In this document: in pieces, positions 5,746 to 61,230 of the stretch
Layout of the letters: every line of letters starts with the position of its first letter
Numbering within the stretch: position 1 is the stretch's first letter
NCBI GenBank assembly: GCA_016865935.1
Contig: VGOB01000001.1
Coordinates: forward strand, 1 to 63,690
Reading direction: 5' to 3'
Origin: Chloroflexota bacterium
GTDB taxonomy: Bacteria; Chloroflexota; Anaerolineae; UBA4142
DNA: 63,690 nucleotides
Program-made: the position numbers and the translations under genes
The notes under the pieces: generated by a model
What the model saw: the letters and a program-made list of their open reading frames with translations, nothing else
Told to the model about the DNA's origin: nothing
Databases searched by the model: none

Positions 5746-6037
5746 AATTTTCGATTTTCGATTTCAGATTTTCGATTGGAGAGCTCGCCGTTGTCATTTC
5801 GAGACGCTGCGCGCATACCGCCGCGCGCGCAAAGCGTGTTCGCAATCAGAAACTGTGCGCGCTTGTTCGTAGTGGGCGATTCATCGCCGCTCCGTGCGCT
5901 GAAGCGCATACTACGAACGCCAAGTTTCTGGGTAGCGGAGCGACGCGAAGCGTCTCCGGTTGCGGAATCGAGATTTCTCATCGCGAAAACCGCTCCTCGA
6001 AATGACACACGCAATCTGCAATCGAAAATCGAAAATT
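5746..6037. repeat. TTTTCGA-heptamer hairpin whose two arms are separated by a nested MITE
   Basis: Left arm AATTTTCGATTTTCGATTTCAGATTTTCGATTGG at 5746..5778. Right arm CAATCTGCAATCGAAAATCGAAAATT at 6012..6037 is its reverse complement. Confidence 0.6.
5793..6006. mobile_element. MITE-like element, GTCATTKCGAG...CTCGMAATGAC family (copy H1)
   Basis: Termini are GTCATTTCGAGACGC ... CTCCTCGAAATGAC. The interior shares GAAGCG/CGCTTC-type blocks with the copies at 22462, 22985, 50144 and 51989. Confidence 0.55.
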
Positions 6038-6042: not shown

Positions 6043-6828
6043 TTACTTTTTCTCTTCCACAAATCCTTCCGGTTTAAAGTACTGTACCTCGCGGTACGGT
6101 CGAATCGCGTCTGCCATCGCATCGCGCGCGAGGTTGCCGCTGACGTGCAAGAGCGTGTCGCTGTAATCGTTGTCCACGCCCATCGAAGCGAGACAGGGGT
6201 AGTGATGATGCAACATCCCGGCTTCGTACTCCGCGTCGTCAATTTTCTTGCCGACGATGTTTTCCGCGACGTAGCGCATCACGCCGCATGGCGTATCGCG
6301 CTCGACGGTGACGCTCGCAATCGTCTTCGATTCCGGATCCACCGTCGCGGTGACGCGCGGCTTGCCAAAGTGATGCGCGAATTCGGAAATGAACGGATCG
6401 CTGTACGCGACGCGCTGTCCGCGCAAACTGTAACTCGTTTCCGTGAGCGAACAAAGTGGTTTGGGAAAAACGCTGACGACGCCAACATCTTTGAGCCAGC
6501 CGCGCAGTTGATTCATCAGCCCCTTGGGCAGCCACTCCACGCGGTCAACCGGCGCGATCAGCGATCGTGCGCCGGTCATTGCGCAGAGGTCGGGCAAGAG
6601 TTCCGCGATCCCCGGATGCTCGCCGAGCGCGAGAATCAGATCGGCGGGCGGCAACTGCTTGGGCAAAAAGTCGGCTGGGTCGTCAATGACGATCGGGAAA
6701 AACGCGGGCGCGGTCCACTCGTGCACCTCCCAATCTTTCGGACCGTGCGCGCGAATGATGCGGGCTTTGCGTCGCCCGTATTCGCCGGAAACAACAGCGA
6801 GTAATTTCACAATGAGCCAATTTTCCAA
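6043..6828 (-). CDS. DUF166-family protein
   Basis: 261-aa ORF starting at a TTG inside a repeat. A GTG at 6810 would give MKLLAVVSGEYG..., which is the typical DUF166 N-terminus. Conserved Cys contexts PLCSL, TPCG and YPCLASM. Confidence 0.7.
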   Translation of the reverse strand: MENWLIVKLLAVVSGEYGRRKARIIRAHGPKDWEVHEWTAPAFFPIVIDDPADFLPKQLPPADLILALGEHPGIAELLPDLCAMTGARSLIAPVDRVEWLPKGLMNQLRGWLKDVGVVSVFPKPLCSLTETSYSLRGQRVAYSDPFISEFAHHFGKPRVTATVDPESKTIASVTVERDTPCGVMRYVAENIVGKKIDDAEYEAGMLHHHYPCLASMGVDNDYSDTLLHVSGNLARDAMADAIRPYREVQYFKPEGFVEEKK

Positions 6829-6878
6829 TGAGCCAATGAGCCAAATGCTTTGGTAAATTGGCTCATTGGCTCATTGGT
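6811..6878. repeat. palindromic repeat, GGCTCATT octamer family (copy F1)
   Basis: AATGAGCCAATTTTCCAATGAGCCAATGAGCCAAATG ... AATTGGCTCATTGGCTCATTGG between fhs and DUF166. Other copies lie at 26167..26201 and 58555..58616. Confidence 0.6.
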
Positions 6879-6887
6879 TCATTTCGT

Positions 6888-8756
6888 TTAGAACAACCCC
6901 ACAACCTTGCCCGTCTTCAAATCCAAATCCACATCGTAAAACACCGGACGCGTGGGGAGACCTGGCATCGTGCGCATCGCGCCGCAGAGCGGATAGAGAA
7001 AGCCCGCGCCGACGGACGCGCGAATATCGCGCACCGGCAGACGCCAACCGGTCGGACGCCCCTTGAGCGTGGCGTCGTGCGACAACGACAGGTGCGTCTT
7101 CGCCATATTGATCGGCAGTTTGTCGAAGCCGAGCCGCGTGTACAGTTCGATCTTCTTTTCGGCTTCGGGCATATAATCCACGCCATCCGCGCCGTACACT
7201 TTTTTCGCGATGATTTCGATCTTTTCCTTGATGGACCAATCGAGCGGGTAGAGGAATTCAAAGTGACTCTTTTGCTTTGCCGCATCCATCACCGCTTCGC
7301 CCAGTTCAATCGCGCCCTTGCCGCCGTTCATCCAGTGTGTACACGCCACCGCGACCGATCCGGCTTCTTCGGTCAGCCGCTTGACGAGTTTGACTTCGTC
7401 CTTCGTATCGTACTTGAACGAGTTGATCGCGACGACGACCGGCACGCCGAACAGTTTTGCGTTCTCGATGTGCTTGAGCAGATTGCCCATTCCTTTTTCG
7501 AGGAGCGCGAGATTTTCTTCGGTGTACGCTTTGTCGAGCGGGCGCCCGGCGACAACCCTGGGTCCGCCGCCGTGCATCTTGAGCGCGCGAATCGTCGCGA
7601 CGATGACGACGGCGTTGGGAATCAAGCCCGAGTAGCGGCACTTGATGTCCATAAATTTTTCCATGCCGATGTCCGCGCCAAAGCCGGATTCCGTGACGAC
7701 GTAATCGCCGAGTTTGAGCGCGATCTGATCCGCGACAATCGAGTTGTTGCCGTGCGCGATGTTCGCAAACGGTCCCGCGTGCACAAACGCCGGAGTGCCT
7801 TCGAGTGTCTGCATCAGGTTCGGCATCAACGCGTCTTTCATCAAGACGGTCATCGCACCGGCGACACCCAAATCTTCAGCCGTAATCGGATCGCCGGCTT
7901 TGCTCGTGCCGATGACGATGCGTCCGAGTCGGTCGCGCAAATCTTCCAAGCCAGTCGTCAGCGCGAGGATCGCCATAATTTCGGATGCGACGGCGATGTC
8001 ATAGCCGGTGAGGCGTTCGAGACCTTTGCCTTTTTCGTCGTCGCCAAGGTTGATCTGGATGCGGCGCAAGTGGCGGTCGTTGATGTCCACGACGCGCTGC
8101 CATTGGATCGCCGCCGGATCAATATCGAGCCGGAAGAGGCGGCGTTTTTCTTCGAGCGTCAAGTCTTTGAATTCTTTCTTGATGCCCAGTTTCGCCATCC
8201 GCTTGCGAATCGTCGGCGCGATGTAGCCGTCCGGGCAGTACGCCTGCGCGAGTTTGGCGTCGTCTGGGTTTTCCATCTCGTGGAGAATCCGCGAGTCAAT
8301 CGCCGCGGCGAGGAGATTGTTCGCCGCGCTGACCGCGTGAATGTCGCCGGTGAGATGGAGATTGAAATCTTCCATCGGGACGACTTGGGAATAGCCGCCG
8401 CCTGCCGCGCCACCCTTGATCCCGAACGTGGGACCCATCGAGGGTTGGCGGATGCAGGTGATGACGTTCTGTTTCAAATGCGCGCCGAGCGCTTGGGAGA
8501 GACCGCAGGTTGTGGTGGTTTTGCCTTCGCCGAGGGGAGTCGGCGTGATCGCGGTCACGTCAATGTACTTGCCGTTCTTGCGTTTTTTGAGGCGGTCGCG
8601 CACGTCGAGGTGAACCTTCGCCTTGTAGGGACCGAAGAGTTCCAGTTCTTTTTCTTTCAACCCGATTTCTTCCGCGACTTGAAGAATCGGTTTCAGCTTG
8701 CAGGCTTGCGCGATTTCAATGTCGCTGGGCACGGGGTGCTTGATCTTGATTGCCAT
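6888..8756 (-). CDS. fhs: formate--tetrahydrofolate ligase (long form)
   Basis: 622-aa ORF with GGAAGGAGG SD. P-loop [12 protein letters not shown]. The C-terminus ...[16 protein letters not shown] is typical of FTHFS. Confidence 0.95.
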
Positions 8757-18350: not shown

Positions 18351-18437
18351 AGTGGACAGTGAACAGTGGGCAGTATTCAGTATTCAGTATTCAGTGTTCA
18401 GTCACTGGATACTGGATACTGAACACTGAATACTGGA
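18351..18437. repeat. palindromic repeat built from CAGTATT heptamers (copy A1), between gap and pgk
   Basis: CAGTATTCAGTATTCAGTATTCAGTGTTCAGTCACTGG / ATACTGGATACTGAACACTGAATACTGG. Confidence 0.65.
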
Positions 18438-20325: not shown

Positions 20326-20363
20326 AGACCTGGAAGATTTCCAAAACCTTCCAGGTCTTTTTT
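20326..20363 (+). terminator. terminator hairpin between the convergent Uma2 and rqcH genes (family I, copy I3)
   Basis: AGACCTGGAAG-ATTTCCAAAA-CCTTCCAGGTCT followed by TTTTT. Confidence 0.6.
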
Positions 20364-22020
20364 ATTTCAGCGCCACGCTCACCGTTCGTTCCCCGCGCAC
20401 CGTCACCATTCCGGCGCGTCCGCCGCGCGCGCGTTGCACCTGCTTGCGCGGCGCGACGATCACATCTACACGCGTCTCGCCGCGCGCGGCGGAGTAGCGC
20501 GCCGCCAACCCCGCCGCTTCCTCGATCGTGGATTCCGAAATCGCGCGTCCGGCGCGGACGATGACGACGTGCGCGCCCGCGACATTCCGCGCGTGCAACC
20601 ACACATCATCCGATTTCGCGCGCCGAAACGTGACCTCCTCATTTTGCCGCGCGTTCTTGCCAACCAGGATCGCAAATCCTTCGCGCGAGGTGAATTCGCG
20701 CGGCACGCTGGGCGCGGTTTTCACGCGTTGCTTGGCGACGGCGATCAATCCGGCGTCGCGCGCGGCGGCGATCACCGCGTCGATTTCCGCGCGACTCTCC
20801 GCCAGCTCGAGATCGGTCAACGTCTGCTCCGCGTATTCCACTTCGACGTTCGCGGCGGCGAGCAACGCCGGTACGCGCGCCCGCGCGTCTTTTTGCCGGT
20901 GATACTCTTTGAAAAATTTCTGCGCGTTCTCCACAGCGGACAAGTTCGGATTCAACGCAATCTCTAATCCCGAATCTCCGATCTCGATTTTCAAAATTCC
21001 TTGCCCTCGCGCGATCGCGTGCGCGTGCGCCAAGATCGTCTCGCCGCTGGCGCGCAACCGCTCCACCTCTGCCGCGCTGGGCAACGCGTCCGCGAGCGCG
21101 TCGCGTTTGCGCGCCAGCCGATCGCGCGCGTCCGCGATTTGCGCGCGCAGCGGTTCTTTCACCGCCGCGTACGATTCCGGCGCGCCGTAGAATGATTCGA
21201 TGGCGGCGCTGATAGATGGGAAAATTTGGTGATGCGGTGAGTGGGTGATGGGGTACGGCGCGAACGCCGCGGGCTCGTCGTCTTCGAACGCGACGCACGG
21301 TTGCCAGGGCGCGCGCGTCAGCGCGTGGAACGTCGCGACGATGTCCACCGCGCGCCGCGGATCGTTGGGCGCGTCACACTCGCCGGTGACGCGGAACGCG
21401 ATTTCGCGCGCGAGCAGCGGACTGACTCCGGCAATCGAACCGACGAGCGTGTGGCGCAGCAGCGCGCGCGGATTCGCGGCGAGAATGCGCGCCAGATCGG
21501 ACGGATCGAGATTGCCGGGATGAATTTTCGCTTGCGGCGGCGGCGGCGCGTAGACGTGGCGCGGCAACACAACGCGCGCGCGATTGATCGTCGCGTCCAC
21601 GCGCTTGAGCGCGTCGAGCACGACGCCGTCCGCGTCGAGCAAAACGAGGTTCGCGTACTTGCCAATCGTTTCGACGACGAGCGTGGTGATCCCTTCGCGC
21701 GCGTGATCGAATCGGAGTTGGAGGACGCGTTCGTGCTGCAGCGGCGTGATCGCGTCCAGCAACGCGTTCTCGACGCGCTTGCGGAGCAAGAGCAACAACG
21801 GCGACGGCGGCAGTCCGCGCGCGCGCAATTTCTGCGCAACGAGATGGACGCGCGCGTCTTGAGGATGCGCGGTGAGGTAGAGATAGCGCCGCGTGTGCTG
21901 CGCGTAAATTTCCACGCCGAACGCGTGCGCGTCGAGTTGCGCAATATCTTGGACGCGCCCGCGCAAGATTTTTTCGTTCAGTTCAGCCGCAACGGCGGCA
22001 AGTGTGATCGCGTCAAACAT
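20362..22020 (-). CDS. rqcH: NFACT/RqcH-family ribosome quality-control protein (FbpA-like)
   Basis: 552-aa ORF. NFACT-N start MFDAITLAAVAAELNEKILRGRVQDI, a coiled-coil middle, and C-terminal NFACT-R (DVWLHARNVAGAHVVI). Confidence 0.85.
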   Translation of the reverse strand: MFDAITLAAVAAELNEKILRGRVQDIAQLDAHAFGVEIYAQHTRRYLYLTAHPQDARVHLVAQKLRARGLPPSPLLLLLRKRVENALLDAITPLQHERVLQLRFDHAREGITTLVVETIGKYANLVLLDADGVVLDALKRVDATINRARVVLPRHVYAPPPPQAKIHPGNLDPSDLARILAANPRALLRHTLVGSIAGVSPLLAREIAFRVTGECDAPNDPRRAVDIVATFHALTRAPWQPCVAFEDDEPAAFAPYPITHSPHHQIFPSISAAIESFYGAPESYAAVKEPLRAQIADARDRLARKRDALADALPSAAEVERLRASGETILAHAHAIARGQGILKIEIGDSGLEIALNPNLSAVENAQKFFKEYHRQKDARARVPALLAAANVEVEYAEQTLTDLELAESRAEIDAVIAAARDAGLIAVAKQRVKTAPSVPREFTSREGFAILVGKNARQNEEVTFRRAKSDDVWLHARNVAGAHVVIVRAGRAISESTIEEAAGLAARYSAARGETRVDVIVAPRKQVQRARGGRAGMVTVRGERTVSVALK

Positions 22021-22039
22021 TTAGGTTGAGCTTCAAGGA

Positions 22040-22181
22040 GTCCCGCCCCAAGCGTCGCCGGTTCGTCGCTAGTCGCCTGGTCGGTTAGTCGCATCGTCGC
22101 GGCGGGTTGCGCGCGACGAGTTGACCACGTGACCGAGTGACTAGGTGACGATCGGTTACCACAGGGGGCGGGACGGTTTTT
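22040..22181. repeat. about 140-bp imperfect hairpin element closed by GTCCCGCCCC/GGGGCGGGAC
   Basis: 10-bp closing arms at 22040..22049 and 22165..22174. The interior has TAGTCGC/GTGACTA-type half-repeats. GGTTTTT follows on the plus strand. Confidence 0.4.
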
Positions 22182-22315
22182 ATTCGACTGGGCGACCTCG
22201 CGCGCGCCGCAGTCAGGACAGGGTCTGGACTTTCCCCCAGGGCGCCGCGGCTGCCATCCAGCGTAGCAGATGGACAGCATTTCTGGCGGTCCTTACGCCA
22301 CCTGCTGGGATAGTA

Positions 22316-22400
22316 CTCGACGCCACCACCACCCGCACACCGTTGTCGTTGTTGTCGTTGTTGCGGTTGTTGTTGTTGCGAGCGCGCACACCGGCGGTTT
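22316..22400 (-). repeat. DGR template repeat (TR), non-coding and AAC-rich
   Basis: The 85 bp align without gaps to 22703..22787 (offset 387). There are 73 identities and 12 mismatches, and every mismatch is at a coding-strand adenine of this copy. In the target frame it reads AGVRARNNNNRNNDNNDNGVRVVVAS. Confidence 0.8.
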
Positions 22401-22461
22401 AGACGACCCTGCCCTACAACACAGATTGACTTGCGCCAACCCGAATTGCCAAATTGATCTT

Positions 22462-22585
22462 GTCATTGCGAGGAGCGGTTTGTGCACCGAAGCAATCCCC
22501 AACTGCGATTTGGACGCTTCGCGGCTTCGGCATCCTTCGACTCCGCAGCAAAAACGCTGCTCCGCTCAGGATGCCTCGCAATGAC
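22462..22585. mobile_element. MITE-like element, GTCATTGCGAGGAGC family (copy H2), lying between VR and TR
   Basis: Termini are GTCATTGCGAGGAGCGG ... GCCTCGCAATGAC, followed by ACACGC as in copy H1. Confidence 0.55.
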
Positions 22586-22604
22586 ACACGCGAAAAATTT
22601 TTCG

Positions 22605-22631
22605 ACGAGGGGGCGCAATGCGCCCCCTCGT
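22605..22631 (-). terminator. GC-rich 12-bp stem, 3-nt loop hairpin downstream of the NACHT-FGE gene and VR
   Basis: ACGAGGGGGCGC-AAT-GCGCCCCCTCGT. On the minus strand it is followed by CGAAAAATTTTTCG. It lies 72 nt beyond the VR end. Confidence 0.45.
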
Positions 22632-22683
22632 GCTCCCCCAGCGCGTCAGAAAAAACAGAAAACAGAAGATCAGAAAACAGAAA

Positions 22684-25600
22684 TCAACTGCGGGGGAAAA
22701 TCCTCGACGCCACCACCACCCGCACACCGTCGGCGCTGTCGTCGTAGTAGCGGTCGGAGTAGCTGCGAGCGCGCACACCGGCGGATTCTGCTTTAGTCCA
22801 GTACGCGCCGCCGCGAAGGTACGCGGCATCAATGTTCTCGTAAAGAGTACTCGTCCACTCCCACGCATTCCCCGCCAAGTCCCAAATCTCGCCGCCATCC
22901 TCAGTGATGCGTTTTCCATCGGGATACATCGCGACCGGCGTCGTGCCGCCAATTTCGCTTTCTTTCACATTCGCGCGCGCCAATGTCATTGCGAGGAGCG
23001 ACCCTGAGCGGAGCGAAGCGGAGTCGAAGGGTTGCGACGAAGCAATCCCCGAATCGGGAGTTGGAGATTGCTTCGCTCCGCTCGCAATGACAGATGGATC
23101 CCAGGGATAGCGATTGTTTTCCTCACCGCCCGCCGCGCGCACCCACTCGGCTTCGGTGGGCAAACGAACAAAGGATGAAGGATGAAGGATGAAAGATGAA
23201 TTCTCTCCCCCTCTCCCGCTCTCCCCGTCTCCCCCTCTCAATCTCTCCGTCAGCCACGCGCAATACGCGCTCGCTTCGTACCACGTCACGCCGATCACCG
23301 GATAGCCGGCGCGATGGAAACGCGGATTGTCCCAGTACCTCGGTCGGCGTTCCGCGCCGCCCGCGCGTTTCAGCCAGTCCCACGCTTCGTCTTTCAAGTT
23401 TTTCGCGCGTCCGTTTTCATCCACGCCGGATGGGTCGCGCCAGTATTTTTCGTCGGCGTAGCCGCCCGCGTCAATGAATTTTTGGTACTGCGAACAAGTG
23501 ACCGGATATCTGGCGATCCAGAATTCGGGCAGGTCAGAAACCAGGTTTCTCCGAGAAACCTGGTTTCTCTCTGCGGCAGGGATGTGAACGAACGCGTCCA
23601 GATCGTCCGGCAGCCAGCCCAGCGCGTCGAGGATTTCGCCCGCGGCGGCGCGGTCTTTAATCGGCGTTTGGATGGACTGCATCATCGTTCGCAGTTTGGT
23701 CACAATCTCGTCGCGCAGCGGCGCGGCAAGCCGGTCGCTCATATCCACCGCCGCTTTGCCCGCCATCAAAAGATGTCCGCGTTGGAGCATTTCGTCCATC
23801 AACAACTTGCGGCGCGGGTCGCCCAGTTCCTTCAACGCCAGCGCGAGCAAAATCGTCTCTTCCCACCACGCCTCGCCGATGTGCGCCAACACTTTTTGCG
23901 CGAGCGCGGCATCGAGTTCTTTGACGAGTTCGGTCGCGGCGAGGTACTCGCGAAAGTTCGAGTGCGAAAAGTTGTAGAGATTCGGCGCGCCTTCGACGAA
24001 CAAGCCGCTGCGTTGGTGCGCGATGACGAGAAAACCGCGCGCCCACTGGTCCGGCACATTCTTTTCGCCCTCGCGCTCGCGGAAAAAAGTTCCCAGTTGC
24101 GCCAGCGCATCTTGTTCCGTCGTCTCGGCGCGTCCTTGCTGCTGCATCCAGTACGCCAGATGCGCGAGCGCGCGGTGTTTCGCTTCGACGGCTTCGCCGA
24201 CGTCGCGAAACGCGCGCCCGGTGCCGTCGTCGGTCGCCAGTTGAAACGCTTCCGCCACGTCGTAGCGCGACGTGTCCCAAAAGCCGAGCAAGAGGTCAAC
24301 GATTTCTTTGAAAATATCGACGCGGCGTTCCGGCAGCGTCGCGCCGCGATATTTCGAGACGAGGACGATCGTCGTGCAAAAAAGCGGATTGCGCGAGAGT
24401 TCGTCCACCTTTTCCTTTTGCGGAATTTCTGCGAGCAAGGTCGCCGCGTCGTGACTGGCGCGCGCGGCGTCCCGTTCGAGCGCGCGGCACAATTTGCGAA
24501 TCAATTCCGCGCGTCCTTCCGGCAGCAAGGGCTGGACCGTGCAAACGATGGGGCGCGGCAGGTACTCCGCCACTTCGTCGTATCCTTTGGGACGTGACGA
24601 AAGGACAAAACGATTTTTACGGGGGCGATAGCGATCGATGAATTGTGTGACGTGCTGCGCGACACACGCGCGCAGTTCCGGATCGGACACTTCGTCGAGC
24701 GCGTCGAGCAGGACGAGGCACTTGCCATTCTCCAGACGTTGGCGAAAGAAATCCGGCGTGAGCGCGAGCGCGTTCTTGGTGAAATGATCTTGAATGTACG
24801 TCAACAACGACATCGGCGCGGGCGCGGGAAATTCTTTGCGATGATTCTTGAGAAACTCGCCAAAGTTGCGGAGCGGGACGAGGATCGGCAAAAGCGGATC
24901 GCCTTGCCAATCCAATTTTTCTTTCGCGTCGCCGTTCGCAAACGCGAGCGCAAGATGGCGCAAGAGTGTCGTCTTGCCGGAACCCGGCGCGCCTTTGAGC
25001 AAGACGTAATCGTACCGCGGCAAAATGTCGTTGATCGTTTGCGGCTTGAAACCTTCCAGGTCTCCAAGACCTGGAAGGTTTTTGTCAACGCGCCGCCGCG
25101 CTTTTTCTTCCGCTTCGGGATCGTGGACTTGAAGCGGGACAAAGACGGCTTCCAGTTCGGCTTCGGTCGTCGCTTCGCGACTGCGCGGGCGCACAAAGAG
25201 GAACGAAAGGTAGGTGTGTTTTTCGCGGACGTGCGCGAGGTAATCGTTCAACGCCTGCGCGTGATCGCCCGTCGTCGCAATGCCTTGCGCGGCGGCAAGC
25301 GCGGCAAGCCAGGTGTTCGTCGCGTCCTGCTTTTTTGCCGCGCGCAATTCGAGCGCGAATTTCATCAGCGGCTCGTACGCCTTGATCTGCGCGAAACGCA
25401 AGCGAAATTCCCAGAGGAACGCGGCGAGCGTGGGACGCGCTTGCTCGTTCAAACCAAAGGCGCGCAAGAGATCGTCCGAAATGCGCGTGGGGCTGGGATC
25501 GTCCAGCGTGAGGAGCGCGGCAAGCGTCTGCTTTTGCAAGTTCCTGTCGGTCGCCAGTTTGGCAACGCGCGTGAGGATAGCGTCGGCTTGCGCGTTGGTC

Positions 25601-25815
25601 ACGCCCGGCGATTTGCGGAACGCGTCTTCGGTCGCCTCCAGCGCGCGCCGCAAATCGTTCTCGTGTTGCTTGGCTTGATAGCCGCGCAAAAAATTCGCGG
25701 CGAATTGTTCGGCAAGAGTCCTGGTCGCTGTTTTGGCGCCTTCTTCAGCCATCACTCTGCCAACGACTAGCGCTGCTGATGCAAGCGCCGACGCTGCAGG
25801 AATCCAATCTAACAT
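22684..25815 (-). CDS. STAND NTPase: N-terminal helical region, NACHT domain, helical repeats, C-terminal FGE-sulfatase/C-type-lectin domain (DGR target)
   Basis: 1043 aa from the ATG at 25815 (GGAGG SD). The ORF track start at 25902 runs through a hairpin repeat. Walker A LLKGAPGSGKTTLLRHLA. FGE motifs YPVIGVTWYEASAYCAWL, RLPTEAEW, GNAWEWTS and LRGGAYW. The last 28 codons are the VR. Confidence 0.85.
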   Translation of the reverse strand: MLDWIPAASALASAALVVGRVMAEEGAKTATRTLAEQFAANFLRGYQAKQHENDLRRALEATEDAFRKSPGVTNAQADAILTRVAKLATDRNLQKQTLAALLTLDDPSPTRISDDLLRAFGLNEQARPTLAAFLWEFRLRFAQIKAYEPLMKFALELRAAKKQDATNTWLAALAAAQGIATTGDHAQALNDYLAHVREKHTYLSFLFVRPRSREATTEAELEAVFVPLQVHDPEAEEKARRRVDKNLPGLGDLEGFKPQTINDILPRYDYVLLKGAPGSGKTTLLRHLALAFANGDAKEKLDWQGDPLLPILVPLRNFGEFLKNHRKEFPAPAPMSLLTYIQDHFTKNALALTPDFFRQRLENGKCLVLLDALDEVSDPELRACVAQHVTQFIDRYRPRKNRFVLSSRPKGYDEVAEYLPRPIVCTVQPLLPEGRAELIRKLCRALERDAARASHDAATLLAEIPQKEKVDELSRNPLFCTTIVLVSKYRGATLPERRVDIFKEIVDLLLGFWDTSRYDVAEAFQLATDDGTGRAFRDVGEAVEAKHRALAHLAYWMQQQGRAETTEQDALAQLGTFFREREGEKNVPDQWARGFLVIAHQRSGLFVEGAPNLYNFSHSNFREYLAATELVKELDAALAQKVLAHIGEAWWEETILLALALKELGDPRRKLLMDEMLQRGHLLMAGKAAVDMSDRLAAPLRDEIVTKLRTMMQSIQTPIKDRAAAGEILDALGWLPDDLDAFVHIPAAERNQVSRRNLVSDLPEFWIARYPVTCSQYQKFIDAGGYADEKYWRDPSGVDENGRAKNLKDEAWDWLKRAGGAERRPRYWDNPRFHRAGYPVIGVTWYEASAYCAWLTERLRGGDGESGRGGENSSFILHPSSFVRLPTEAEWVRAAGGEENNRYPWDPSVIASGAKQSPTPDSGIASSQPFDSASLRSGSLLAMTLARANVKESEIGGTTPVAMYPDGKRITEDGGEIWDLAGNAWEWTSTLYENIDAAYLRGGAYWTKAESAGVRARSYSDRYYDDSADGVRVVVASRIFPRS
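22703..22787 (-). repeat. DGR variable repeat (VR) at the 3' end of the NACHT-FGE gene
   Basis: Matches the TR except at 12 TR-adenine positions. It encodes SAGVRARSYSDRYYDDSADGVRVVVAS. The 28-bp GC-rich 3' block (22703..22730) is identical to the TR and is IMH-like. Confidence 0.8.
22985..23091. mobile_element. MITE-like element (copy H3) inserted in frame in the FGE domain
   Basis: GTCATTGCGAGGAGCGACC ... CGCTCGCAATGAC. It translates as ...IASGAKQSPTPDSGIASSQPFDSASLRSGSLLAMT... between the FGE motifs YPWDP and GGTTPVAMYPDG. Confidence 0.6.
23171..23249. repeat. GGATGAA-heptamer tract plus GGGAGAG-type tract inside the FGE domain (copies C1 and D1)
   Basis: AAGGATGAAGGATGAAGGATGAAAGATGAA then CTCTCCCCCTCTCCCGCTCTCCCCGTCTCCCCCTCTC. 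They translate as GGDGESGRGGENSSFILHPSSF between AWLTERL and RLPTEAEW. Confidence 0.6.
25049..25083. repeat. family I hairpin (copy I4) in frame inside the NACHT protein
   Basis: AAACCTTCCAGGTC-TCCAA-GACCTGGAAGGTTT. It encodes ...NLPGLGDLEGFKP... just upstream of the Walker A region. Confidence 0.6.
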
Positions 25816-25828
25816 CGCGCCTCCAAAG

Positions 25829-25861
25829 AGACCTTCCAGGTTTCCAAAACCTGGAAGGTCT
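25829..25861. repeat. family I hairpin (copy I5) between the Phd-like gene and the NACHT gene start
   Basis: AGACCTTCCAGGT-TTCCAAA-ACCTGGAAGGTCT. Confidence 0.55.
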
Positions 25862-25868
25862 GTGAGTT

Positions 25869-26111
25869 TCACGACAACGCGTCGGTATCTTTCGCTTTCC
25901 AACTCCCCGCCGCCGCGAGAAATGCATTACGGTCGGCTGTTCTATTCTTGCGATGATGTGGTAGGCGCGCGCGGAATGGCGTAAGTAGAACTAACACCTT
26001 GCCGCGCCTTTCCAATGCGACCGGTCTGCGCTCGCGCGTGACGCGTTTCAAGACGCGGGTTGGATTTTCAACCAGTTCGTCCACCGGAATCCGCGCAATG
26101 GCTCGATTCAT
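25869..26111 (-). CDS. small Phd/YefM-like antitoxin-fold protein
   Basis: 80-aa ORF with GGAGGAG SD. The N-terminus MNRAIARIPVDELVENPTRVLKRVTRERRPVALERRGKVLVLL resembles Phd/YefM antitoxins. No cognate toxin ORF is seen. Confidence 0.5.
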   Translation of the reverse strand: MNRAIARIPVDELVENPTRVLKRVTRERRPVALERRGKVLVLLTPFRARLPHHRKNRTADRNAFLAAAGSWKAKDTDALS

Positions 26112-26166
26112 CTTATTTTCTCCTCCGCCACATTATACCATGTTTCGCGTTTCACGCATCACGCCT

Positions 26167-26201
26167 TTGGCTCATTGGCTCATTGGTCAATTGGCTCATT
26201 G
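26167..26201. repeat. direct GGCTCATT octamer tract (copy F2, half element)
   Basis: TTGGCTCATTGGCTCATTGGTCAATTGGCTCATTG overlaps the stop codon of the permease gene. Confidence 0.5.
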
Positions 26202-27293
26202 TTTCTCATACGGCTGTCCGTCCGCCGCCGGAGGAATCGCGCGTCCGACGAAACCGGTGAGTACGAGAATCGTCAAGACGTACGGCAGCATCTGCGGAAT
26301 CTGCGACGGGATGTCGGGGCGAAAGATGCTGATCGTCGTCGTGATCGTGTTGCCCAAGCCGAAGATGAGCGCGCCGGCGAGCGCGCCAAACGGCGACCAA
26401 TTGCCAAAGATCATCGCCGCCAAACCGATAAAGCCCAAGCCGTTCGTCATCTGCGGGTTGAACACGTCCACCGCTTCCAGCGTGAACCACGCGCCCGCAA
26501 AACCGGCGAGCGCGCCGCCGAGCAAGACGTTGATGTACCGCACGCGAAAGACGTTGATGCCGAGCGTGTCCGCCGCGCGCGGATTCTCGCCGACCGCGCG
26601 CGTCCGCAAGCCCCAGGGCGTGAAAAACAAAACATAGTGAATCAACAGCGTGACGATCATCATAAAATAGACGATCGGTTTCTGTCCCTGGAACACAATC
26701 GGACCCAGGATCGGAATTTGCGCGAGTAGCGGAATATCGAACGGCGCGAACGTGCCGGGACCCGGCGGAATATCTTGCGCGAGATATTGGCGGTAGAAAT
26801 AGCCGGTGATGCCGAGCGCGAGAATGTTGATCACCGTGCCGCTGATGATTTGATCCGCTTTGAAACGGATCGAGACGACGCCGTGCAGCAGCGCCATCAA
26901 ACCGCTCGCAGCGATCGCGAGCAAGAGCGAAAGCCAGCGGCTCGCATCGCCCGCCAGCGCCGGATCCATCCCGCCGGCTTTTAGCCAGGTAAACGCGTAG
27001 ACGTTCACGCCATAGCCCACCATCGCCGCCGTCAGCATCATCCCTTCGATGCCGATATTGATGACGGCGGCGCGCTCGCACATCAAGCCGCAGTACGCCG
27101 CCAGCGCGACCGGCGCGGCGTATCGGATCGCCTGGTTCAGCGTGCCGATCACGCATTTGGAATCGCACTTGCCGCCGATGATCGCATCGAACACCAAGAA
27201 CACGGCAACCGCGCCAATGCCAATGAAAACGGCGTTGAGTATCTGACGCGAACTGATTTTGATTGCACGTTGCTTGTTTGCAAGTACCGCCAT
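26196..27293 (-). CDS. ABC transporter permease (BMP/nucleoside type, YufQ/NupC-like)
   Basis: 365-aa polytopic ORF, the last gene of the BMP-ABC operon. Confidence 0.88.
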   Translation of the reverse strand: MAVLANKQRAIKISSRQILNAVFIGIGAVAVFLVFDAIIGGKCDSKCVIGTLNQAIRYAAPVALAAYCGLMCERAAVINIGIEGMMLTAAMVGYGVNVYAFTWLKAGGMDPALAGDASRWLSLLLAIAASGLMALLHGVVSIRFKADQIISGTVINILALGITGYFYRQYLAQDIPPGPGTFAPFDIPLLAQIPILGPIVFQGQKPIVYFMMIVTLLIHYVLFFTPWGLRTRAVGENPRAADTLGINVFRVRYINVLLGGALAGFAGAWFTLEAVDVFNPQMTNGLGFIGLAAMIFGNWSPFGALAGALIFGLGNTITTTISIFRPDIPSQIPQMLPYVLTILVLTGFVGRAIPPAADGQPYEKQ

Positions 27294-31856: not shown

Positions 31857-32786
31857 ATGCCACTGATGCGTGATCTTTTTCTCGCAATGTCTACGAACGC
31901 GCTGATGCGCCGATTGATCGTCGGCTTTCCGTTGACGCGGCGCGTCACGCGCCGTTTTGTCGCCGGCGAAACGATTGACGAAGCAATTCAGGTGGTCAAG
32001 CAACTAAGGACGCAAGGAATTGACGTCACGTTCGATCAACTCGGCGAGAGCGTGACGAACGAAACGGAAGCGCGCGCCGCGAAAGACGGCTATTTGCGCG
32101 CGCTCGACGCGATTGCCGCGAACCAGGTGGCGTGCCAAATGTCGGTGAAATTGACGCAAATGGGACTCGACCTCAATGCCGATTTATGTCTCGCGAATAT
32201 GCGGGAGATTCTCACGCGCGCGCAACAAGCCGGCACGCTCGTCACGATTGATATGGAGGACTCGGCGCACACCCAGGTCACGCTCAACGTTTTCAAAACA
32301 CTGCGCGAAGAGTTCGACAATGTCGGGATCGTCCTGCAAAGTTATCTCTATCGCAGTGAAGAAGATTTCAGAGCGCTGATCGCGCTCGGCGCGAACGTGC
32401 GCTTGTGCAAAGGCGCGTACAAAGAACCGGCGACCGTCGCGTTTCCGGCAAAAAAAGACGTGGACGCGAATTACATCAAACTCGCGCAACTCTTTTTCGA
32501 TTCCAACGGCAGCGCGAATCGCGCGTATCTCGATCTGGCGACGCACGACGAAAAAATTATCGCGTGGACGAAAGAATACGTTACCGCGCACCAAGTCGAT
32601 CGGAAACGTTTTGAATTTCAAATGCTCTACGGAATTCGTTCCGATCTGCAAAAGAAGATCGTCGCGGAAGGATACACGATGCGCGTCTACGTCCCGTGCG
32701 GCACGCATTGGTATCCGTACTTTATGCGGCGGCTGGCGGAACGTCCGGCGAATGTGATCTTTTTGATTAGCAATCTCTTTCGTTGA
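31857..32786 (+). CDS. proline dehydrogenase
   Basis: 309-aa ORF with AAGGAGG SD. Sequence ...RRFVAGETIDEAIQVVKQLRTQGIDVTFDQLGESV... is typical of monofunctional PRODH. Confidence 0.85.
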   Translation: MPLMRDLFLAMSTNALMRRLIVGFPLTRRVTRRFVAGETIDEAIQVVKQLRTQGIDVTFDQLGESVTNETEARAAKDGYLRALDAIAANQVACQMSVKLTQMGLDLNADLCLANMREILTRAQQAGTLVTIDMEDSAHTQVTLNVFKTLREEFDNVGIVLQSYLYRSEEDFRALIALGANVRLCKGAYKEPATVAFPAKKDVDANYIKLAQLFFDSNGSANRAYLDLATHDEKIIAWTKEYVTAHQVDRKRFEFQMLYGIRSDLQKKIVAEGYTMRVYVPCGTHWYPYFMRRLAERPANVIFLISNLFR

Positions 32787-32843
32787 GTTCAAGGTTCAAA
32801 GTTCGACGTTCAAACTTTGAACCTTGAACTTGGAACTTTGAAC
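32787..32843. repeat. palindromic repeat built from GTTCAAG heptamers (copy B1)
   Basis: GTTCAAGGTTCAAAGTTCGACGTTCAAACTTTGAACCTTGAACTTGGAACTTTGAAC. Confidence 0.65.
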
Positions 32844-32853
32844 CAGGGGAATT

Positions 32854-34041
32854 ATGAAAGCCGAAACCATCTCCATCGGCACCGAGTTGTTGCTCGGGCA
32901 AATCACGGACACGAACGCGGTTTGGATCGCGGAGCGGCTGTCCGAAGTTGGCGTGGACTTGTACTTTCGCACGACCGTCGGCGATAACGTCGGGCGGATC
33001 GTGGACGCGATTCAACACGCGCTCACGCGCGCCGATGTCATCATCACGACCGGCGGCTTGGGACCAACCGTTGACGATATGACGCGCGAAGCGGTCGCCA
33101 AAGCGACGGCGCGCGATCTGGTGCTGGACGAAAACTTGCTCGCGCAGATTCGGCGAATGTTCGAGCGGTGGGGACGCGGGATGAGCGAGAACAACGTGCG
33201 GCAGGCGTACATTCCGCGCGGCGCGACGCCGATTGAAAATCCGGTCGGTACCGCGCCGGTCTTCATCGTCGAGCATCAGGGCAAGTACGTCATCGCGCTG
33301 CCGGGCGTGCCGCGCGAAATGAAATATTTGATGGAGACGCGCATCCTCCCCTGGTTGCGCGAAAAAACCGGCGGCGAGTGGATCATCCTCAGCAAAACAC
33401 TCCGCACCTGCGCGGTCGGCGAAAGTCAGGTGGATGAAAAGATCACCGATCTCGAAGCGTCATCGAATCCGACCGTGGGCTTGCTCGCGCACCCAGGGCA
33501 GACCGATGTGCGCGTCACGGCAAAAGCGCGTACGCGCGCGGAAGCGGAAACGCTGATCAAAGAGATGGAAGCGCGCGTGCGCGAACGGCTCGGCGATTGG
33601 ATTTACGGCGAAGGCGACGAAACAGTCGAAGAAGTGACCGCGCGCGCACTCGCGGCGCGCAATTGGCGCATCGCGCTCGCGGAGACGAACACCGCCGGAA
33701 AGATCGCGGAACGCTTGCGCGCGCGTCCGGAAGGCACGCGCATTATCAAATCCGCGATGTTGCTCGACAACGTGACGGAACTTTCGGAGAAAAACGCCGG
33801 GACGATTGCAGAGCAATTCCGCAACGTGACCGGCGCAGACATCGCCGTCGCCGTGCTGGGGACGACGAACTCCGGTCAAGATATGTACGCCGAAGATACC
33901 GGGCATTGCGCGATGGCAGTCGCCACCGCGTCCGGGACGATCACGCGCGCGTACTCCATCGGCGGGATCAGCGATCAAGCGCAAACCTGGATCATCACGC
34001 GCGCGTTGGATTTGGTGAGACGCGCGACGCTGAAAGCGTGA
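32854..34041 (+). CDS. cinA: CinA-family protein (MoCF-type N-domain plus CinA/NMN-deamidase-like C-domain)
   Basis: 395-aa ORF. N-terminus MKAETISIGTELLLGQITDTNAVWIAERL. Confidence 0.85.
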   Translation: MKAETISIGTELLLGQITDTNAVWIAERLSEVGVDLYFRTTVGDNVGRIVDAIQHALTRADVIITTGGLGPTVDDMTREAVAKATARDLVLDENLLAQIRRMFERWGRGMSENNVRQAYIPRGATPIENPVGTAPVFIVEHQGKYVIALPGVPREMKYLMETRILPWLREKTGGEWIILSKTLRTCAVGESQVDEKITDLEASSNPTVGLLAHPGQTDVRVTAKARTRAEAETLIKEMEARVRERLGDWIYGEGDETVEEVTARALAARNWRIALAETNTAGKIAERLRARPEGTRIIKSAMLLDNVTELSEKNAGTIAEQFRNVTGADIAVAVLGTTNSGQDMYAEDTGHCAMAVATASGTITRAYSIGGISDQAQTWIITRALDLVRRATLKA

Positions 34042-42006: not shown

Positions 42007-43557
42007 CTATTTCGTCCAAACCGGATGATCGCCGGACTTGGTCGTCAAGCGCGTGACGTTGCTCCCGTTGCGATCCATCATATAAATATCGTTCTGCCCT
42101 TCGCGCGTGGACGCGAATGCGATCCAGTTTCCATCGGGCGACCAGGTCGGCGAGAAATCCGAGTAGACGCCGTTGCTCAAGCGACGCAAGCCGGTGCCGT
42201 CCGGGTTCACCAGATAAATTTGCGCCTTGCCATCGCGATTCGACGTGAACGCGAGCAGTTTGCCGTCGGGACTGAATGCCGGCGCGGAATCGTCCGCGTC
42301 GTGCTTGGCGAGCACGCGCACGTCACTGCCATCCGGCTTCATCGTGTAAATGTCGTTGAACGCCGTCGTGTTGAACGACACGGCGAGCAGGTCTTGTTTC
42401 GACCAAGAGACTTCGCGATATTGTTCTTCGCCGACTTGCTTGTACAAACATTCGTGGCGAGAGTCCGTGCATTTGCTCCCGTCGGCGTTGACGATGACGA
42501 GCATCCGCGTTTTGCCGTCCGCGCGAAAACTGGTCAGCGCGATCCGCGTGCCGTCCGGCGACCAGGAGGGGCTGGAGAGACTGCCGGTGTTCTCACCAGG
42601 ATAGATCATCACGGGCTTGTCGTCGGTGTACGGATTTTTGATCATCAAGGAGTTGACCGCGCCCAATGACGCGGCGTAGATGTACGCGAACTTGGCATTA
42701 TCCGGCGACCAATCCGCGATGCGCGCGTTCGTCCGCTTGACGATGTCCGGCAACGGTCCCGAGACGACGAGCGGCGTGATGGTTTTCGTTTCGAGATTGT
42801 AGATCGAAATGCGATCGATCCCCTTGTCGTTCCAGTGATACGCGATGCTCCCTTTCGGCGCGGGGAATTTCACCGGCGTCGGCGTCGCGGAGGGCTTGGG
42901 CGTCGCGACAGCCACCTTGGTTGCCGTACGCGTCGCAGTTGGCGTGACCGGCGTCGTCGAAACGAGTTTGCCGTCTTGCAGTTTGAACTTGCGCGTTGTA
43001 TCGAGCATCGGATTTGCCATCGAATCTTTTGGACCCTGGGTCAAAAAGTTGGCGTTGATCTCGCCCCCTTGGATCGTCAGCGATTTGAGTTTGATCCGAT
43101 CGCCTAATACTTCGGGCGCGCTGGGCTTGGGCGCGCCTTGGTCGTTCAGCACGCCGTACAAATTGTAAAACGTGCCGGTGCCGCCGGAGTTGAGCGTGAG
43201 AATGATCGCCACGTCCGCAATGCCGTCGCCGTTCAGATCGCCGACGGAGAGCACCTCGTTGAACGCGACGGCGATCTGTGCGGACGCGTTGGGGATTTTT
43301 TCCTGATACGATCCGTTGACGAGTTTGGCTTTGCCGCTCGCCGGACCTTCGATCAGATACTCGGCGTTCTTGAGCGCGTCGAGCGTGAGCGACGGAATCG
43401 CGGTCGGCGTCCAGGTTGGCGTCGGTGGAATCGCGGTGGGGGTTGCAGTTGGAAACGGCGTGGGCGTGGGAACAGGCGTCGGCGTCGGTGATGCGCCGCA
43501 CGCGCTGGTGCTGAGCGCCAGCGCGATCAACGCGCCCAGGATGAAATGTTTTTTCAT
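42007..43557 (-). CDS. PD40/TolB-like beta-propeller lipoprotein with Pro/Thr-rich linkers
   Basis: ATG at 43557 (AAAGGAG SD). Lipobox LALSTSAC. Repeated SPDG-type (W/F)SPDG PD40 motifs. Confidence 0.8.
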   Translation of the reverse strand: MKKHFILGALIALALSTSACGASPTPTPVPTPTPFPTATPTAIPPTPTWTPTAIPSLTLDALKNAEYLIEGPASGKAKLVNGSYQEKIPNASAQIAVAFNEVLSVGDLNGDGIADVAIILTLNSGGTGTFYNLYGVLNDQGAPKPSAPEVLGDRIKLKSLTIQGGEINANFLTQGPKDSMANPMLDTTRKFKLQDGKLVSTTPVTPTATRTATKVAVATPKPSATPTPVKFPAPKGSIAYHWNDKGIDRISIYNLETKTITPLVVSGPLPDIVKRTNARIADWSPDNAKFAYIYAASLGAVNSLMIKNPYTDDKPVMIYPGENTGSLSSPSWSPDGTRIALTSFRADGKTRMLVIVNADGSKCTDSRHECLYKQVGEEQYREVSWSKQDLLAVSFNTTAFNDIYTMKPDGSDVRVLAKHDADDSAPAFSPDGKLLAFTSNRDGKAQIYLVNPDGTGLRRLSNGVYSDFSPTWSPDGNWIAFASTREGQNDIYMMDRNGSNVTRLTTKSGDHPVWTK

Positions 43558-43722
43558 AGAAACTCCTTTGTGCTCGACCGACGACGGATGACCGGCGACC
43601 GCCGCGCGGCGCAAGGAAAAGATCGTTGCTATTTTTATATCACAAAAATCGAAATGCGTAAAATCGCGCGCAAGAAAATGGCGCAGGAGATTGCCCCCTG
43701 CGCCATTCGATTGGCGGATCGT

Positions 43723-47564: not shown

Positions 47565-48758
<1,194 letters not shown>

Positions 48759-50130: not shown

Positions 50131-50143
50131 TCCGTAATATTGT

Positions 50144-50234
50144 GTCATTGCGAGGAGCGCTTTTTGCGACGAAGCCGCCGTAGGCGTCCGAATCGCGAAT
50201 TGGGGATTGCTTCGCAAACTTCGCTCGCAATGAC
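50144..50234. mobile_element. MITE-like element (copy H4) between the polyprenyl synthase and GT2 genes
   Basis: GTCATTGCGAGGAGCGC ... CGCTCGCAATGAC. Confidence 0.55.
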
Positions 50235-50242
50235 AATCCACA

Positions 50243-51993: not shown

Positions 51994-52230
51994 TGCGGTA
52001 ACTGCTCAGCCCATTGTCATGCTGAGCGAAGCGAAGCATCTCGCTAATCGCGAATTGCGAGACGCAAAGCGTTCGTCGCAAAAACCGCTCCTCAGAATGA
52101 CAGCCTGAGCAGTTACTCATTGCGAGTGTTGTGCGCGAAGCAATCCCCAAATTGCAACACGGAGATTGCTTCGTCGCATCGTTCGACTGCGCTGCGCTCC
52201 GCTCACGATGCTCCTCGCAATAACACCGCC
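51989..52230. mobile_element. cluster of two MITE-like elements (H5 nested between GTAACTGCTCAG/CTGAGCAGTTAC arms, then H6)
   Basis: GTCATTGCGGTAACTGCTCAG [GTCATGCTGAGCGAAGCG...CTCCTCAGAATGAC] CTGAGCAGTTAC TCATTGCGAG...CTCCTCGCAATAAC. Confidence 0.5.
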
Positions 52231-54520: not shown

Positions 54521-54593
54521 CAGTGTTCAGTATTCAGTTTTCAGTATCAAGTGAACTGAATACTGAACACTGAATACTGAATACTGTTCACTG
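54521..54593. repeat. CAGTATT palindromic repeat (copy A2), overlapping the glmM stop
   Basis: CAGTGTTCAGTATTCAGTTTTCAGTATCAAGTGAACTGAATACTGAACACTGAATACTGAATACTG. Confidence 0.65.
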
Positions 54594-58567: not shown

Positions 58568-58616
58568 ACCAATTGACCAATGAGCCAAATCATCGCGGAT
58601 GATTTGGCTCATTGGT
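58555..58616. repeat. GGCTCATT palindromic repeat (copy F3) covering the stop codons of two convergent genes
   Basis: AATGAGCCAATGAACCAATTGACCAATGAGCCAAATCATC ... GATGATTTGGCTCATTGG. Confidence 0.6.
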
Positions 58617-61154: not shown

Positions 61155-61165
61155 AATCCCTCGTT

Positions 61166-61222: not shown

Positions 61223-61230
61223 CAAGCTCA

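Follow-up and report, generated by a model that had tools for sequence, protein, structure and literature searches.

Diversity-generating retroelements (DGRs) are usually defined and sought as cassettes centred on a reverse transcriptase (RT), with the template (TR) adjoining the RT gene. In the prototype, the BPP-1 DGR (mtd-avd-TR-Sp-brt), elements of avd and Sp pair across TR in the 'cPRT Stop' duplex, which has been reported for 207 DGRs and after which come a stem-loop and adenosines. In Trichodesmium erythraeum, TR is an independent, abundant non-coding RNA of ~265 nt with its own transcription start, and one enzyme set acts on many sites, a single RT-adjacent TR serving 12 remote variable regions (VRs) (Pfreundt et al, 2014; PMC4143802). 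In multicellular bacteria, filamentous Chloroflexi among them, DGRs diversify STAND NTPase (NACHT/nSTAND)-CLec 'antigen sensors', and Thiohalocapsa PB-PSB1 carries 'degenerate' loci, whose machinery is missing or pseudogenised and which may be acted on in trans (Dore et al, 2024; PMC10907252).

Here we describe a DGR locus on a 63.7-kb stretch of DNA, the whole of which was analysed and is referred to below as the window. The host is a freshwater Chloroflexota bacterium, and the locus is chromosomal, amid housekeeping genes. With BPP-1 it shares the adenine-specific relation of TR to VR, the identical GC-rich 3' block and the position of VR at the C-terminal tip of a C-type-lectin-fold domain; unlike BPP-1, it is not part of a phage, is without RT and Avd, and targets a cytoplasmic-type NACHT NTPase instead of a tail fibre. 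Like our target, those of Dore et al (2024) place NACHT centrally, between an uncharacterised N-terminus and a C-terminal CLec domain that the DGR diversifies. Whereas the Trichodesmium TR lies beside the RT and its VRs are remote, here TR lies beside the target and the RT is remote or missing. The PB-PSB1 degenerate loci occur within one genome, where remote TRs or structural variants with intact RTs were offered as their explanation (PMC10907252); the layout described here, which lacks RT and Avd but has a TR of its own, is instead found in six diverged lineages, with a conserved dedicated RNA module and with co-evolution of TR and VR. NACHT-CLec DGR targets and degenerate loci have already been published, and the module described here is a new variation on them: a conserved, structured template RNA for which another locus probably supplies the enzyme.

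Results

A NACHT-FGE target with an adenine-specific TR/VR pair

The target gene P0001 (22684..25815, minus strand; 1043 aa) encodes an N-terminal region without known domain, a NACHT NTPase and a C-terminal FGE-sulfatase/C-type-lectin-fold domain that bears VR. Pfam, run on the 1072-aa ORF 22684-25902, whose N-terminus is 29 aa longer than that of P0001, placed NACHT at aa 299-472 (E=8e-15) and FGE-sulfatase at aa 790-1062 (E=3e-33), and also matched nSTAND3 (E=6e-7). The N-terminal ~290 aa of this ORF, ahead of NACHT, contain no Pfam domain and hence no recognisable effector. The protein thus combines a NACHT/STAND NTPase core with a C-terminal sensor domain, as in Avs/bNACHT defence proteins. 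PADLOC returned marginal P-loop-level matches alone (E about 3e-4) and no meaningful match to a defence family, and a scan of genome contigs with the target alignment was dominated by the generic P-loop pattern, with distant relatives at ≤31% identity among the matches listed. By analogy with the targets of Dore et al (2024; PMC10907252), the protein may have a role in defence, and it would presumably function as a sensor.

The initial annotation had reported that an 85-nt segment at the end of this gene reappears downstream with differences confined to adenines. An ungapped minus-strand alignment of the two copies, TR (22316..22400) and VR (22703..22787), reproduces the claimed 73 identities and 12 mismatches, the latter exactly at the listed TR positions (22344, 46, 49, 53, 59, 62, 68, 70, 71, 74, 76 and 98), and the start-to-start distance of 387 nt. 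All 12 mismatches fall on a coding-strand A of the downstream copy, whose 85 nt include 24 A (hypergeometric P = 2.1e-8), and no non-A difference separates the repeats (61 of 61 non-A positions identical). One detail was inexact: VR is not the very last 85 bp of the gene but stops 17 nt short of the stop codon (22684-22686), coding for residues 7-34 when counted back from the C-terminal residue.

The codon reading was likewise correct, with NNNNRNNDNNDN in TR against SYSDRYYDDSAD in VR, which encodes ...SAGVRAR-SYSDRYYDDSAD-GVRVVVAS. In the target frame TR has nine AAC, two GAC and one ACC codons; changes at its adenines cannot reach any stop codon, and about 2.5e12 peptide variants are possible. 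The GC-rich, IMH-like 3' block of VR (22703..22730, minus strand) is, as annotated, identical to TR over 28 nt (22316-22343), past which the flanks differ (GATTTTCCC on the VR side, TACTATCCC on the TR side). Its 26-nt core occurs at only two places in the window, where chance expectation is 0. An adenine-specific pair at the C-terminal tip of an FGE/CLec domain, with true DGR RTs and bAvd in homologous loci, bears out the assignment to a DGR, and the repeat is strongly supported as a genuine TR/VR pair made by adenine-specific mutagenic retrohoming.

The window holds neither RT nor Avd

The DGR interpretation holds for the TR/VR pair and does not extend to a complete cassette, as the window contains neither of the enzyme components. 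Queries with BPP-1 Brt, the RT of a decayed relative (L004) and a 120-sequence clade HMM gave no RT match in six frames of the 63.7 kb; RVT_1 was absent from Pfam scans of the window's large ORFs; and BPP-1 Avd and clade bAvds (from L051 and L043) found no Avd or bAvd in the window. The slot that holds RT and Avd in relatives measures only about 660 bp here. The locus is an RT/Avd-less target-template module, not a complete DGR. Loss of the RT by assembly collapse between VR and TR was rejected, since the assembly contains both copies, separated by 302 nt of unique sequence, and since independent assemblies gave this layout on several contigs and in several lineages. The 100-aa ORF 21978-22280, between TR and NFACT, was deemed spurious; it has no family match and overlaps conserved RNA helices. 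Rfam and tRNA scans of the window gave no matches.

Intact, RT-less and decayed relatives

In relatives, the corresponding slot holds an intact cassette in the order target, RT, bAvd, TR, structured RNA, NFACT; the gene order target-RT-Avd-TR differs from the target-Avd-TR-RT order of BPP-1, and the clade RT is 37% identical to BPP-1 Brt. In GCA_020723345.1 (L003+L051) the target-RT-bAvd-TR-RNA series is spread over two overlapping contig ends, and in L054-56 an intact cassette has the synteny of the window on both sides, 17 of 17 mismatches at A and matching RNA motifs. These intact sisters and the window are homologous in target family, or at least in chromosomal slot, and have in common A-only mismatches and the TR-flanking RNA motifs GGGCAAGGTC and CCGTCCCGCCCCCTGTGGTA...GACGCTTGGGGCGGGA; unlike the window, the sisters carry an RT (354-360 aa) and a bAvd (117 aa) between target and TR. 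Decay is seen in L004, where a thumb-less RT is fused to a 26-nt TR stump.

The RT-less layout is common to six lineages (the window, L046, L050, L005/6, L042 and L047-49), all on contigs without RT. In each of them the mismatches are essentially restricted to TR adenines, which account for 58 of 63 when the lineages are pooled. Where the TRs of two RT-less lineages differ at a non-A position, VR carries the base of its own TR at 126 of 127 such pairwise differences.

The TR lies in a conserved structured RNA module

TR is contained in a conserved, structured non-coding unit of ~410 nt (22041..22450, minus strand). RNAalifold, applied to an alignment of seven sequences (A5), predicted 81 pairs, 21 of them with double changes. 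Pairing reached 95% in place, as against 35-46% when the structure was slid, and 20 covarying pairs compare with 7.1±1.8 in shuffled alignments, none of 500 shuffles attaining the observed number. The single-sequence fold of the window module has z = -4.2 and recovers H1, H2, H6 and H7. A predicted helix within TR was excluded from the structure test because TR must be read as template; its pairs barely vary.

At its 5' end the module has a hairpin with a GNRA-type loop, H1 (GGGTTGGC-GCAA-GTCAATCT; 22416..22449, minus strand), which has three pairs with double changes and a counterpart in L047 (GAAATGGC..GCCATTTC). H1 is confined to RT-less modules and was absent from L051, L054-56, L043, L039 and L004; it occupies the position of the avd 3' end in intact cassettes, and in BPP-1, too, the avd 3' end lies upstream of TR where the window has H1. 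Directly upstream of TR, the 5' strand of H2 (AGGGCAGGGTC; 22405..22415, minus strand) pairs with 22215-22225, the 3' strand (GACC-CTGTCCT; minus strand), and so closes TR into a loop. This helix of 11 bp, predicted by RNAalifold and by the single-sequence fold, has three pairs with double changes, is kept also in the intact cassette L051 and is comparable to the cPRT Stop duplex of BPP-1. It is followed by the H6 stem-loop (22186-22214; three pairs with double changes) and the A-rich GAATAAAAA (22177-22185), together 22177..22214 on the minus strand, which resemble the 'stem-loop plus adenosines' of BPP-1. H2, H6 with its A-run and further stem-loops are supported by covariation and resemble the published TR-flanking elements of cis-primed reverse transcription.

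Inside the H2 loop, a candidate template strand, TACTATCCC (22307..22315, minus strand), begins exactly at the end of TR/VR homology, and a candidate primer strand, GGGAAAGT (22229..22236, minus strand), lies 3 nt upstream of the H2 3' strand, a geometry like that of Sp47-56 in BPP-1. With 84% of cells paired and one covarying pair, the assignment of a template:primer duplex is suggestive only. Downstream of TR, the H3/H4 stem-loop (GCTGTCCATC...GGATGGCAGC; 22243..22288, minus strand; four pairs with double changes in H4) is a candidate Avd-binding stem-loop by comparison with the published description. The module ends in the long hairpin H7/H8 (GTCCCGCCCC-CTGTGGTAA ... GACGCTT-GGGGCGGGAC; 22040..22174, minus strand), identified in the covariation alignment and having a variable apical insert. 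This hairpin is common to the clade's intact cassettes and was found in L051, L054-56 and L004, with compensatory GCGCC/GGCGC.

Between target and module, downstream of the target stop, lies a GC-rich hairpin followed by A5T5 (cgagggggcgc-att-gcgccccctcg; 22606..22630, minus strand), which is kept as a hairpin in all relatives (six-locus alignment; homology to L004). Judged from its sequence, it is likely a terminator and possibly a DGR target-side hairpin. A simple terminator scan around the module called nothing, this hairpin included, and a scan for sigma-70-type promoters around the module detected none. A MITE-like palindromic element (GTCATTGCGAGG...CCTCGCAATGAC; 22462..22585) is inserted between the putative terminator and the TR module and is missing from the other RT-less loci.

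VR alleles segregate in sister lineages

Present or very recent activity of the system, as initially proposed, is plausible given the 61 unchanged non-A positions and the intact RNA elements. The window's own lineage has one VR allele on record, on five contigs from at least four samples, and searching with the C-terminal 140 aa recovered no further allele; evidence for activity comes from sister lineages. A scan with the TR/VR 3' block, in a metagenome collection that excludes the sample of the window, matched seven contigs and yielded neither population variants of this VR nor an RT-linked copy of this TR. Among RT-less targets clustered at ≥90% identity, variation is concentrated in VR. L050, L052 and L053, nearly identical contigs from three samples, lack an RT and agree fully in TR, yet each has a different VR allele. 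Changes at A alone suffice to derive the two alleles of the L046 lineage, and likewise the two of the L047 lineage, from the local TR. In the L050 lineage, by contrast, four of the five VR alleles require AAC at the same two codons, for which the local TR reads GAC or CTC. The local TR is therefore not the sole donor in the L050 lineage, and these alleles hint at cross-templating between related TRs.

Discussion

We regard it as fairly probable that the locus is an RT/Avd-less DGR target-template module whose VR is rewritten by a trans-acting enzyme. Ancestrally, the slot would have contained a cassette of the NACHT-FGE target with VR, a DGR RT, bAvd, TR, the structured spacer RNA and NFACT. 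The lineage of the window would then have lost RT and bAvd, leaving the target gene and a stand-alone TR-RNA gene of ~410 nt. In the RNA, the TR-flanking sequences would pair (H2) and the downstream stem-loops be presented; an RT-bAvd belonging to the same clade and encoded at another genomic site may bind these elements, cis-prime at the 3' boundary of TR and copy TR with misincorporation opposite adenines. The cDNA would replace VR via the shared GC-rich 3' block, so that as many as 12 codons would be rewritten where the C-type-lectin-fold sensor domain forms its ligand-binding tip. We infer that the genome contains such a trans-acting RT-Avd, that the module is transcribed and that priming proceeds in this way.

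The main rival to service in trans is a recent fossil, in which RT and bAvd disappeared by deletion in the recent past, the genome retains no compatible RT, and the TR/VR pair is frozen and will decay. The absence of RT and Avd across 63.7 kb and the single VR allele across samples of the window lineage agree with such a loss, which is plausible as an in-situ deletion because L054-56 hold an intact cassette in the same slot, and which has precedents in the broken cassette of L004 and in the degenerate DGR loci already known (Dore et al, 2024; PMC10907252). The complete identity at non-A positions and the fully intact RNA helices would nevertheless demand that it was very recent. Moreover, the RT-less-specific H1 is common to five other diverged lineages, in which TR-VR co-evolution held, and VR alleles still segregate in other RT-less lineages; together, these observations argue that the RT-less state has long persisted and functions, rather than having arisen by recent breakage. 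A single origin of that state is suggested by the shared H1, although the two flanks that the window shares with the intact L054-56 cassette are also compatible with a separate deletion in situ in the window lineage. On balance, we consider a recent fossil unlikely.

A complete remote DGR could instead rewrite VR in trans from its own related TR, with the local TR a leftover or an occasional donor. Distant TRs matched to remote targets are documented, and the L050-lineage alleles imply a second template, predicted to have AAC at TR codons 9 and 19. The window VR, however, matches the local TR at every non-A base, including sites that differ from the TRs of relatives; the L046 and L047 lineage alleles fit their local TRs; and RNA elements conserved by covariation around the local TR are not expected of an inert remnant, which makes this origin improbable. 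Without any retroelement, an ordinary duplication of the gene's 3' end, or gene conversion there, with mismatches due to chance or composition, would account for the existence of a direct repeat and nothing further; this reading is refuted by the A-only mismatches, the AAC-codon design from which no stop is reachable, the A-biased pattern recurring in six lineages and the DGR RT and bAvd of homologous loci.

Rewriting in trans leads to a broader proposal, on which our judgement is evenly balanced: that selection maintains, as a stable architecture in these Chloroflexota, satellite TR-RNA genes without RT or Avd, which borrow RT-bAvd from another DGR in the genome. If so, each target would have a private template RNA with a dedicated 5' hairpin in place of the avd 3' end, and one enzyme set would serve several TR RNAs, with occasional cross-templating of related TRs.

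The covarying RNA module offers a natural data set for the RNA elements that are sufficient to recruit a DGR RT in trans, which is relevant to DGR-based directed-evolution tools. If TR RNA persists long beside its target without RT and Avd, template and enzyme are separable modules in nature, and a single RT-Avd could drive many private templates as a network. Because published DGR surveys take the RT gene as their anchor, they would, if such satellites exist, systematically undercount RT-less modules and their targets, and so underestimate how many genes are hypermutated, which here are NLR-like NACHT sensors with a presumed role in bacterial immunity.

A template/variable repeat pair in a NACHT-FGE gene

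The initial annotation had proposed that the end of a NACHT-FGE gene reappears downstream as the template repeat of a diversity-generating retroelement (DGR). A gapless minus-strand alignment of the non-coding template repeat (TR, 22316-22400) with the variable region (VR, 22703-22787) bears this out, with 73 identities and 12 mismatches, all 12 at the coordinates originally named. Each mismatch falls, as claimed, on one of the 24 adenines in the 85 nt of the downstream copy (hypergeometric P = 2.1e-8), and none of the 61 non-A positions differs. The codon readings also hold: in the target frame the TR is AAC AAC AAC AAC CGC AAC AAC GAC AAC AAC GAC AAC and the VR is AGC TAC TCC GAC CGC TAC TAC GAC GAC AGC GCC GAC. 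Within the window, the 26-nt core of the 3' block that they share is confined to the TR and VR sites, and no further copies of the TR/VR block were found elsewhere in it. The VR lies 17 nt upstream of the stop codon of the target gene (22684-25815), which encodes a 1043-aa protein (P0001) with a NACHT domain and a C-terminal FGE-sulfatase/C-type-lectin-fold domain.

A MITE-like palindromic family (GTCATTGCGAGG...CTCGCAATGAC, ~105-135 nt) is present at 22984-23090, 22462-22585, ~50143-50250 and ~52072-52226, with a fragment at 5987-6007. One copy lies in frame within the FGE domain of the target, where the ORF remains open and gains ~35 aa (…IASSQPFDSASLRSGSLLAMT…); the homologous proteins P0002-P0010 do not have this insert. 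Short tandem 7-8-nt repeats, often in inverted arrays (AGTTCAAGGTTCAA.., CAGTATTCAG.., CTGACCG.., TTGGCTCA..), occupy many intergenic regions of the window (32786-32858, 50000-50072, 61163-61229; 18357-18435, 54521-54600, 63499-63559; 47776-47806, 48576-48634; 6803-6891, 26149-26208, 58555-58598; 22645-22683), and TTCTGAT-type heptamers follow the target stop codon in all relatives.

The window lacks reverse transcriptase and Avd

The gene after the TR, in the place of a reverse transcriptase (RT), is an NFACT/RqcH homologue (20362-22020). Six-frame searches of the 63.7-kb window, which is the first part of a 96-kb freshwater metagenome contig (JGI 3300020074), gave no RT match with BPP-1 Brt, a close relative's RT or an HMM built from 120 clade RTs, and no match to the accessory protein Avd with BPP-1 Avd or the clade's own bAvds. 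Only housekeeping genes emerged from Pfam scans of large ORFs and from the genes called on the source contig, and the slot matching the relatives' RT region spans merely ~660 bp. Because neither RT nor Avd is present, the locus is not a complete DGR; very probably it works like one. The window also encodes a MoxR-type AAA ATPase (weak bpMoxR match, 61231-62187) and two PD40 beta-propeller proteins (42007-44889), for which we saw no tie to the DGR module.

The RT-less layout recurs in five further lineages

The same layout was found in five more lineages (L046, L050/52/53, L005/6, L042 and L047/48/49), again on metagenomic contigs, as is all evidence here; the window's relatives carry the annotation Chloroflexota/Anaerolineae. 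Targets whose complete gene is available share 61-74% identity with P0001 (the L042 gene is cut by the contig end). In all five the VR is at the 3' end of the gene and the TR 230-360 nt downstream, and no RT was found on their contigs. Pooled over the RT-less lineages, 58 of 63 TR/VR mismatches are at TR adenines, the few others being mostly terminal in the segments compared. The intergenic regions align in full and define a conserved module of ~330-410 nt around the TR.

Across the window, L046, L050, L005, L042, L047, L004 and L054, the target gene is flanked upstream by an ABC permease or MurJ and downstream by NFACT or an amidohydrolase. All four combinations occur, and therefore the cassette either sits at a rearrangement-prone junction or moves between two loci.

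The module is predicted to form a conserved RNA

RNAalifold applied to an alignment of seven sequences predicted 81 pairs in the TR-RNA module, of which 21 show compensatory double changes. Leaving out the intra-TR helix, 95% of cells are paired compared with 35-46% for slid partners, and 20 pairs show double changes compared with 7.1+/-1.8 after shuffling (0/500) and 2-5 in slid controls. Folded singly, the window's own 415 nt gave z = -4.2 and the same main helices. The predicted helix H2 joins the 11 nt directly 5' of the TR to a segment ~100 nt 3' of it and thereby encloses the TR; it is followed by a predicted stem-loop (H6) with an A-run and a predicted long terminal hairpin (H7/H8). This arrangement agrees with what has been published on the BPP-1 DGR RNA (Handa et al., bioRxiv 10.1101/2023.10.23.563531), in which cis-primed reverse transcription needs an avd:Sp "cPRT Stop" duplex, averaging 13 bp over 207 DGRs, the stem-loop next to it with the adenosines that follow, and a stem-loop to which Avd binds. 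A weakly supported candidate template:primer duplex starts precisely where the TR/VR homology stops.

Of these helices, H2 and H7 recur in the intact cassettes (L051, L054-56). H1, a 5' hairpin, is confined to RT-less modules, where it occupies the position of the avd 3' end, and its sharing may point to a single origin of the RT-less state.

Intact and broken relatives

Three kinds of relative reveal the ancestral state of the window's locus. The target of the MAG GCA_020723345.1 has the same upstream synteny and, across the shared 80% of its length, 78% identity to P0001. It ends one contig, and a DGR RT followed by bAvd opens another; because the two contig ends overlap by ~45 nt, the order is target, RT, bAvd, TR and structured RNA. 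The loci L054/55/56 share synteny with the window on both sides (Bmp, ABC ATPase, two permeases, target ... NFACT) and carry an RT (354 aa) and a bAvd (117 aa) between target and NFACT, with 17 of 17 TR/VR mismatches at A. This clade has a genuine DGR RT (37% identity to Brt, E = 1e-49, with IGNLTSQ and YADD motifs). Lastly, L004 (GCA_016223105.1, 8810-9934) has a broken RT between target and NFACT, whose homology to Brt ends at about residue 288 (no thumb domain) and whose ORF continues into the final 26 nt of a TR and the RNA region beyond. The locus has lost Avd and most of the TR, and NCBI annotates its RT as a group II intron RT.

More distant RT-linked cassettes (L043, 103-1700, and L039, minus strand) show the gene orders RT-Avd-TR and target-Avd-TR-RT. 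Their terminal hairpins are analogous to the clade's, with a CCCTGAGT motif, which suggests that the RNA design reaches beyond this clade.

Continued transfer in RT-less lineages

At non-A positions where TRs differ between lineages, the VR carries the base of its own TR in 126 of 127 pairwise cases; TR-to-VR transfer therefore went on while the lineages diverged. Within RT-less target clusters (at least 90% protein identity), variation is densest in the last 45 residues (variable columns 23/45 versus 29/1013 elsewhere in the P0009 cluster, and 6/45 versus 6/977 in the P0005 cluster). The two alleles each of the L046 and L047 lineages can all be reached from the local TR by A-only changes. L050, L052 and L053, from three samples, are near-identical over 4.4 kb, with 100% identical TRs and no RT on their contigs, and despite this have three different VR alleles. 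In this near-clonal lineage (L050 6292-6384 and the L052/L053 equivalents; P0009 cluster), four of five alleles need non-A changes relative to the invariant local TR, requiring AAC at the same two codons where that TR has GAC or CTC and encoding N/Y and N/D/G there, respectively; one allele has a 3-nt indel. These codons suggest either another, related template at a different place in the genome or VR recombination. The last ~84 aa of P0251, which clusters with P0004 at the same threshold, are of the window/L046 type (AGVRAR…GLRVVVASRAFPRS). Because this stretch exceeds any TR, whole 3' ends have seemingly been swapped between subtypes by recombination.

A template module probably served in trans

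In the window's lineage a single VR allele is on record (five contigs, at least four samples), and a targeted search found no others. This makes a recent fossil, in which the TR/VR pair is the remnant of a lost DGR, a serious rival, especially since both flanks are common to an intact cassette (L054-56) and L004 is a case of decay within the clade. Service in trans is indicated for this lineage indirectly, by zero non-A differences, intact helices and clade membership.

Published work (Dore et al. 2024, PMC10907252) describes NACHT/nSTAND-CLec proteins diversified by DGRs in multicellular bacteria, filamentous Chloroflexi among them, and "degenerate" loci that lack machinery and may be served in trans inside a single genome; "partial DGRs" are catalogued (Yan et al. 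2019). Large surveys are anchored on RT genes and by their own statement miss non-adjacent arrangements (Roux et al. 2021). Avd, TR and brt function in trans in experiments cited in Wu et al. 2018, and TR RNAs can be independent transcripts, as in Trichodesmium (Pfreundt et al. 2014, PMC4143802). NACHT-CLec targets and degenerate loci are thus known; in the literature searched we came across no conserved module that lacks RT and Avd, has a TR RNA of its own plus a dedicated 5' hairpin, and shows TR and VR co-evolving across lineages, and such a module is in this respect new. We infer that the module is transcribed and primed and that the target acts as a sensor. Most likely, the window's locus is a DGR target-template module lacking RT and Avd, and its TR RNA would be used by an RT-bAvd encoded elsewhere in the genome.
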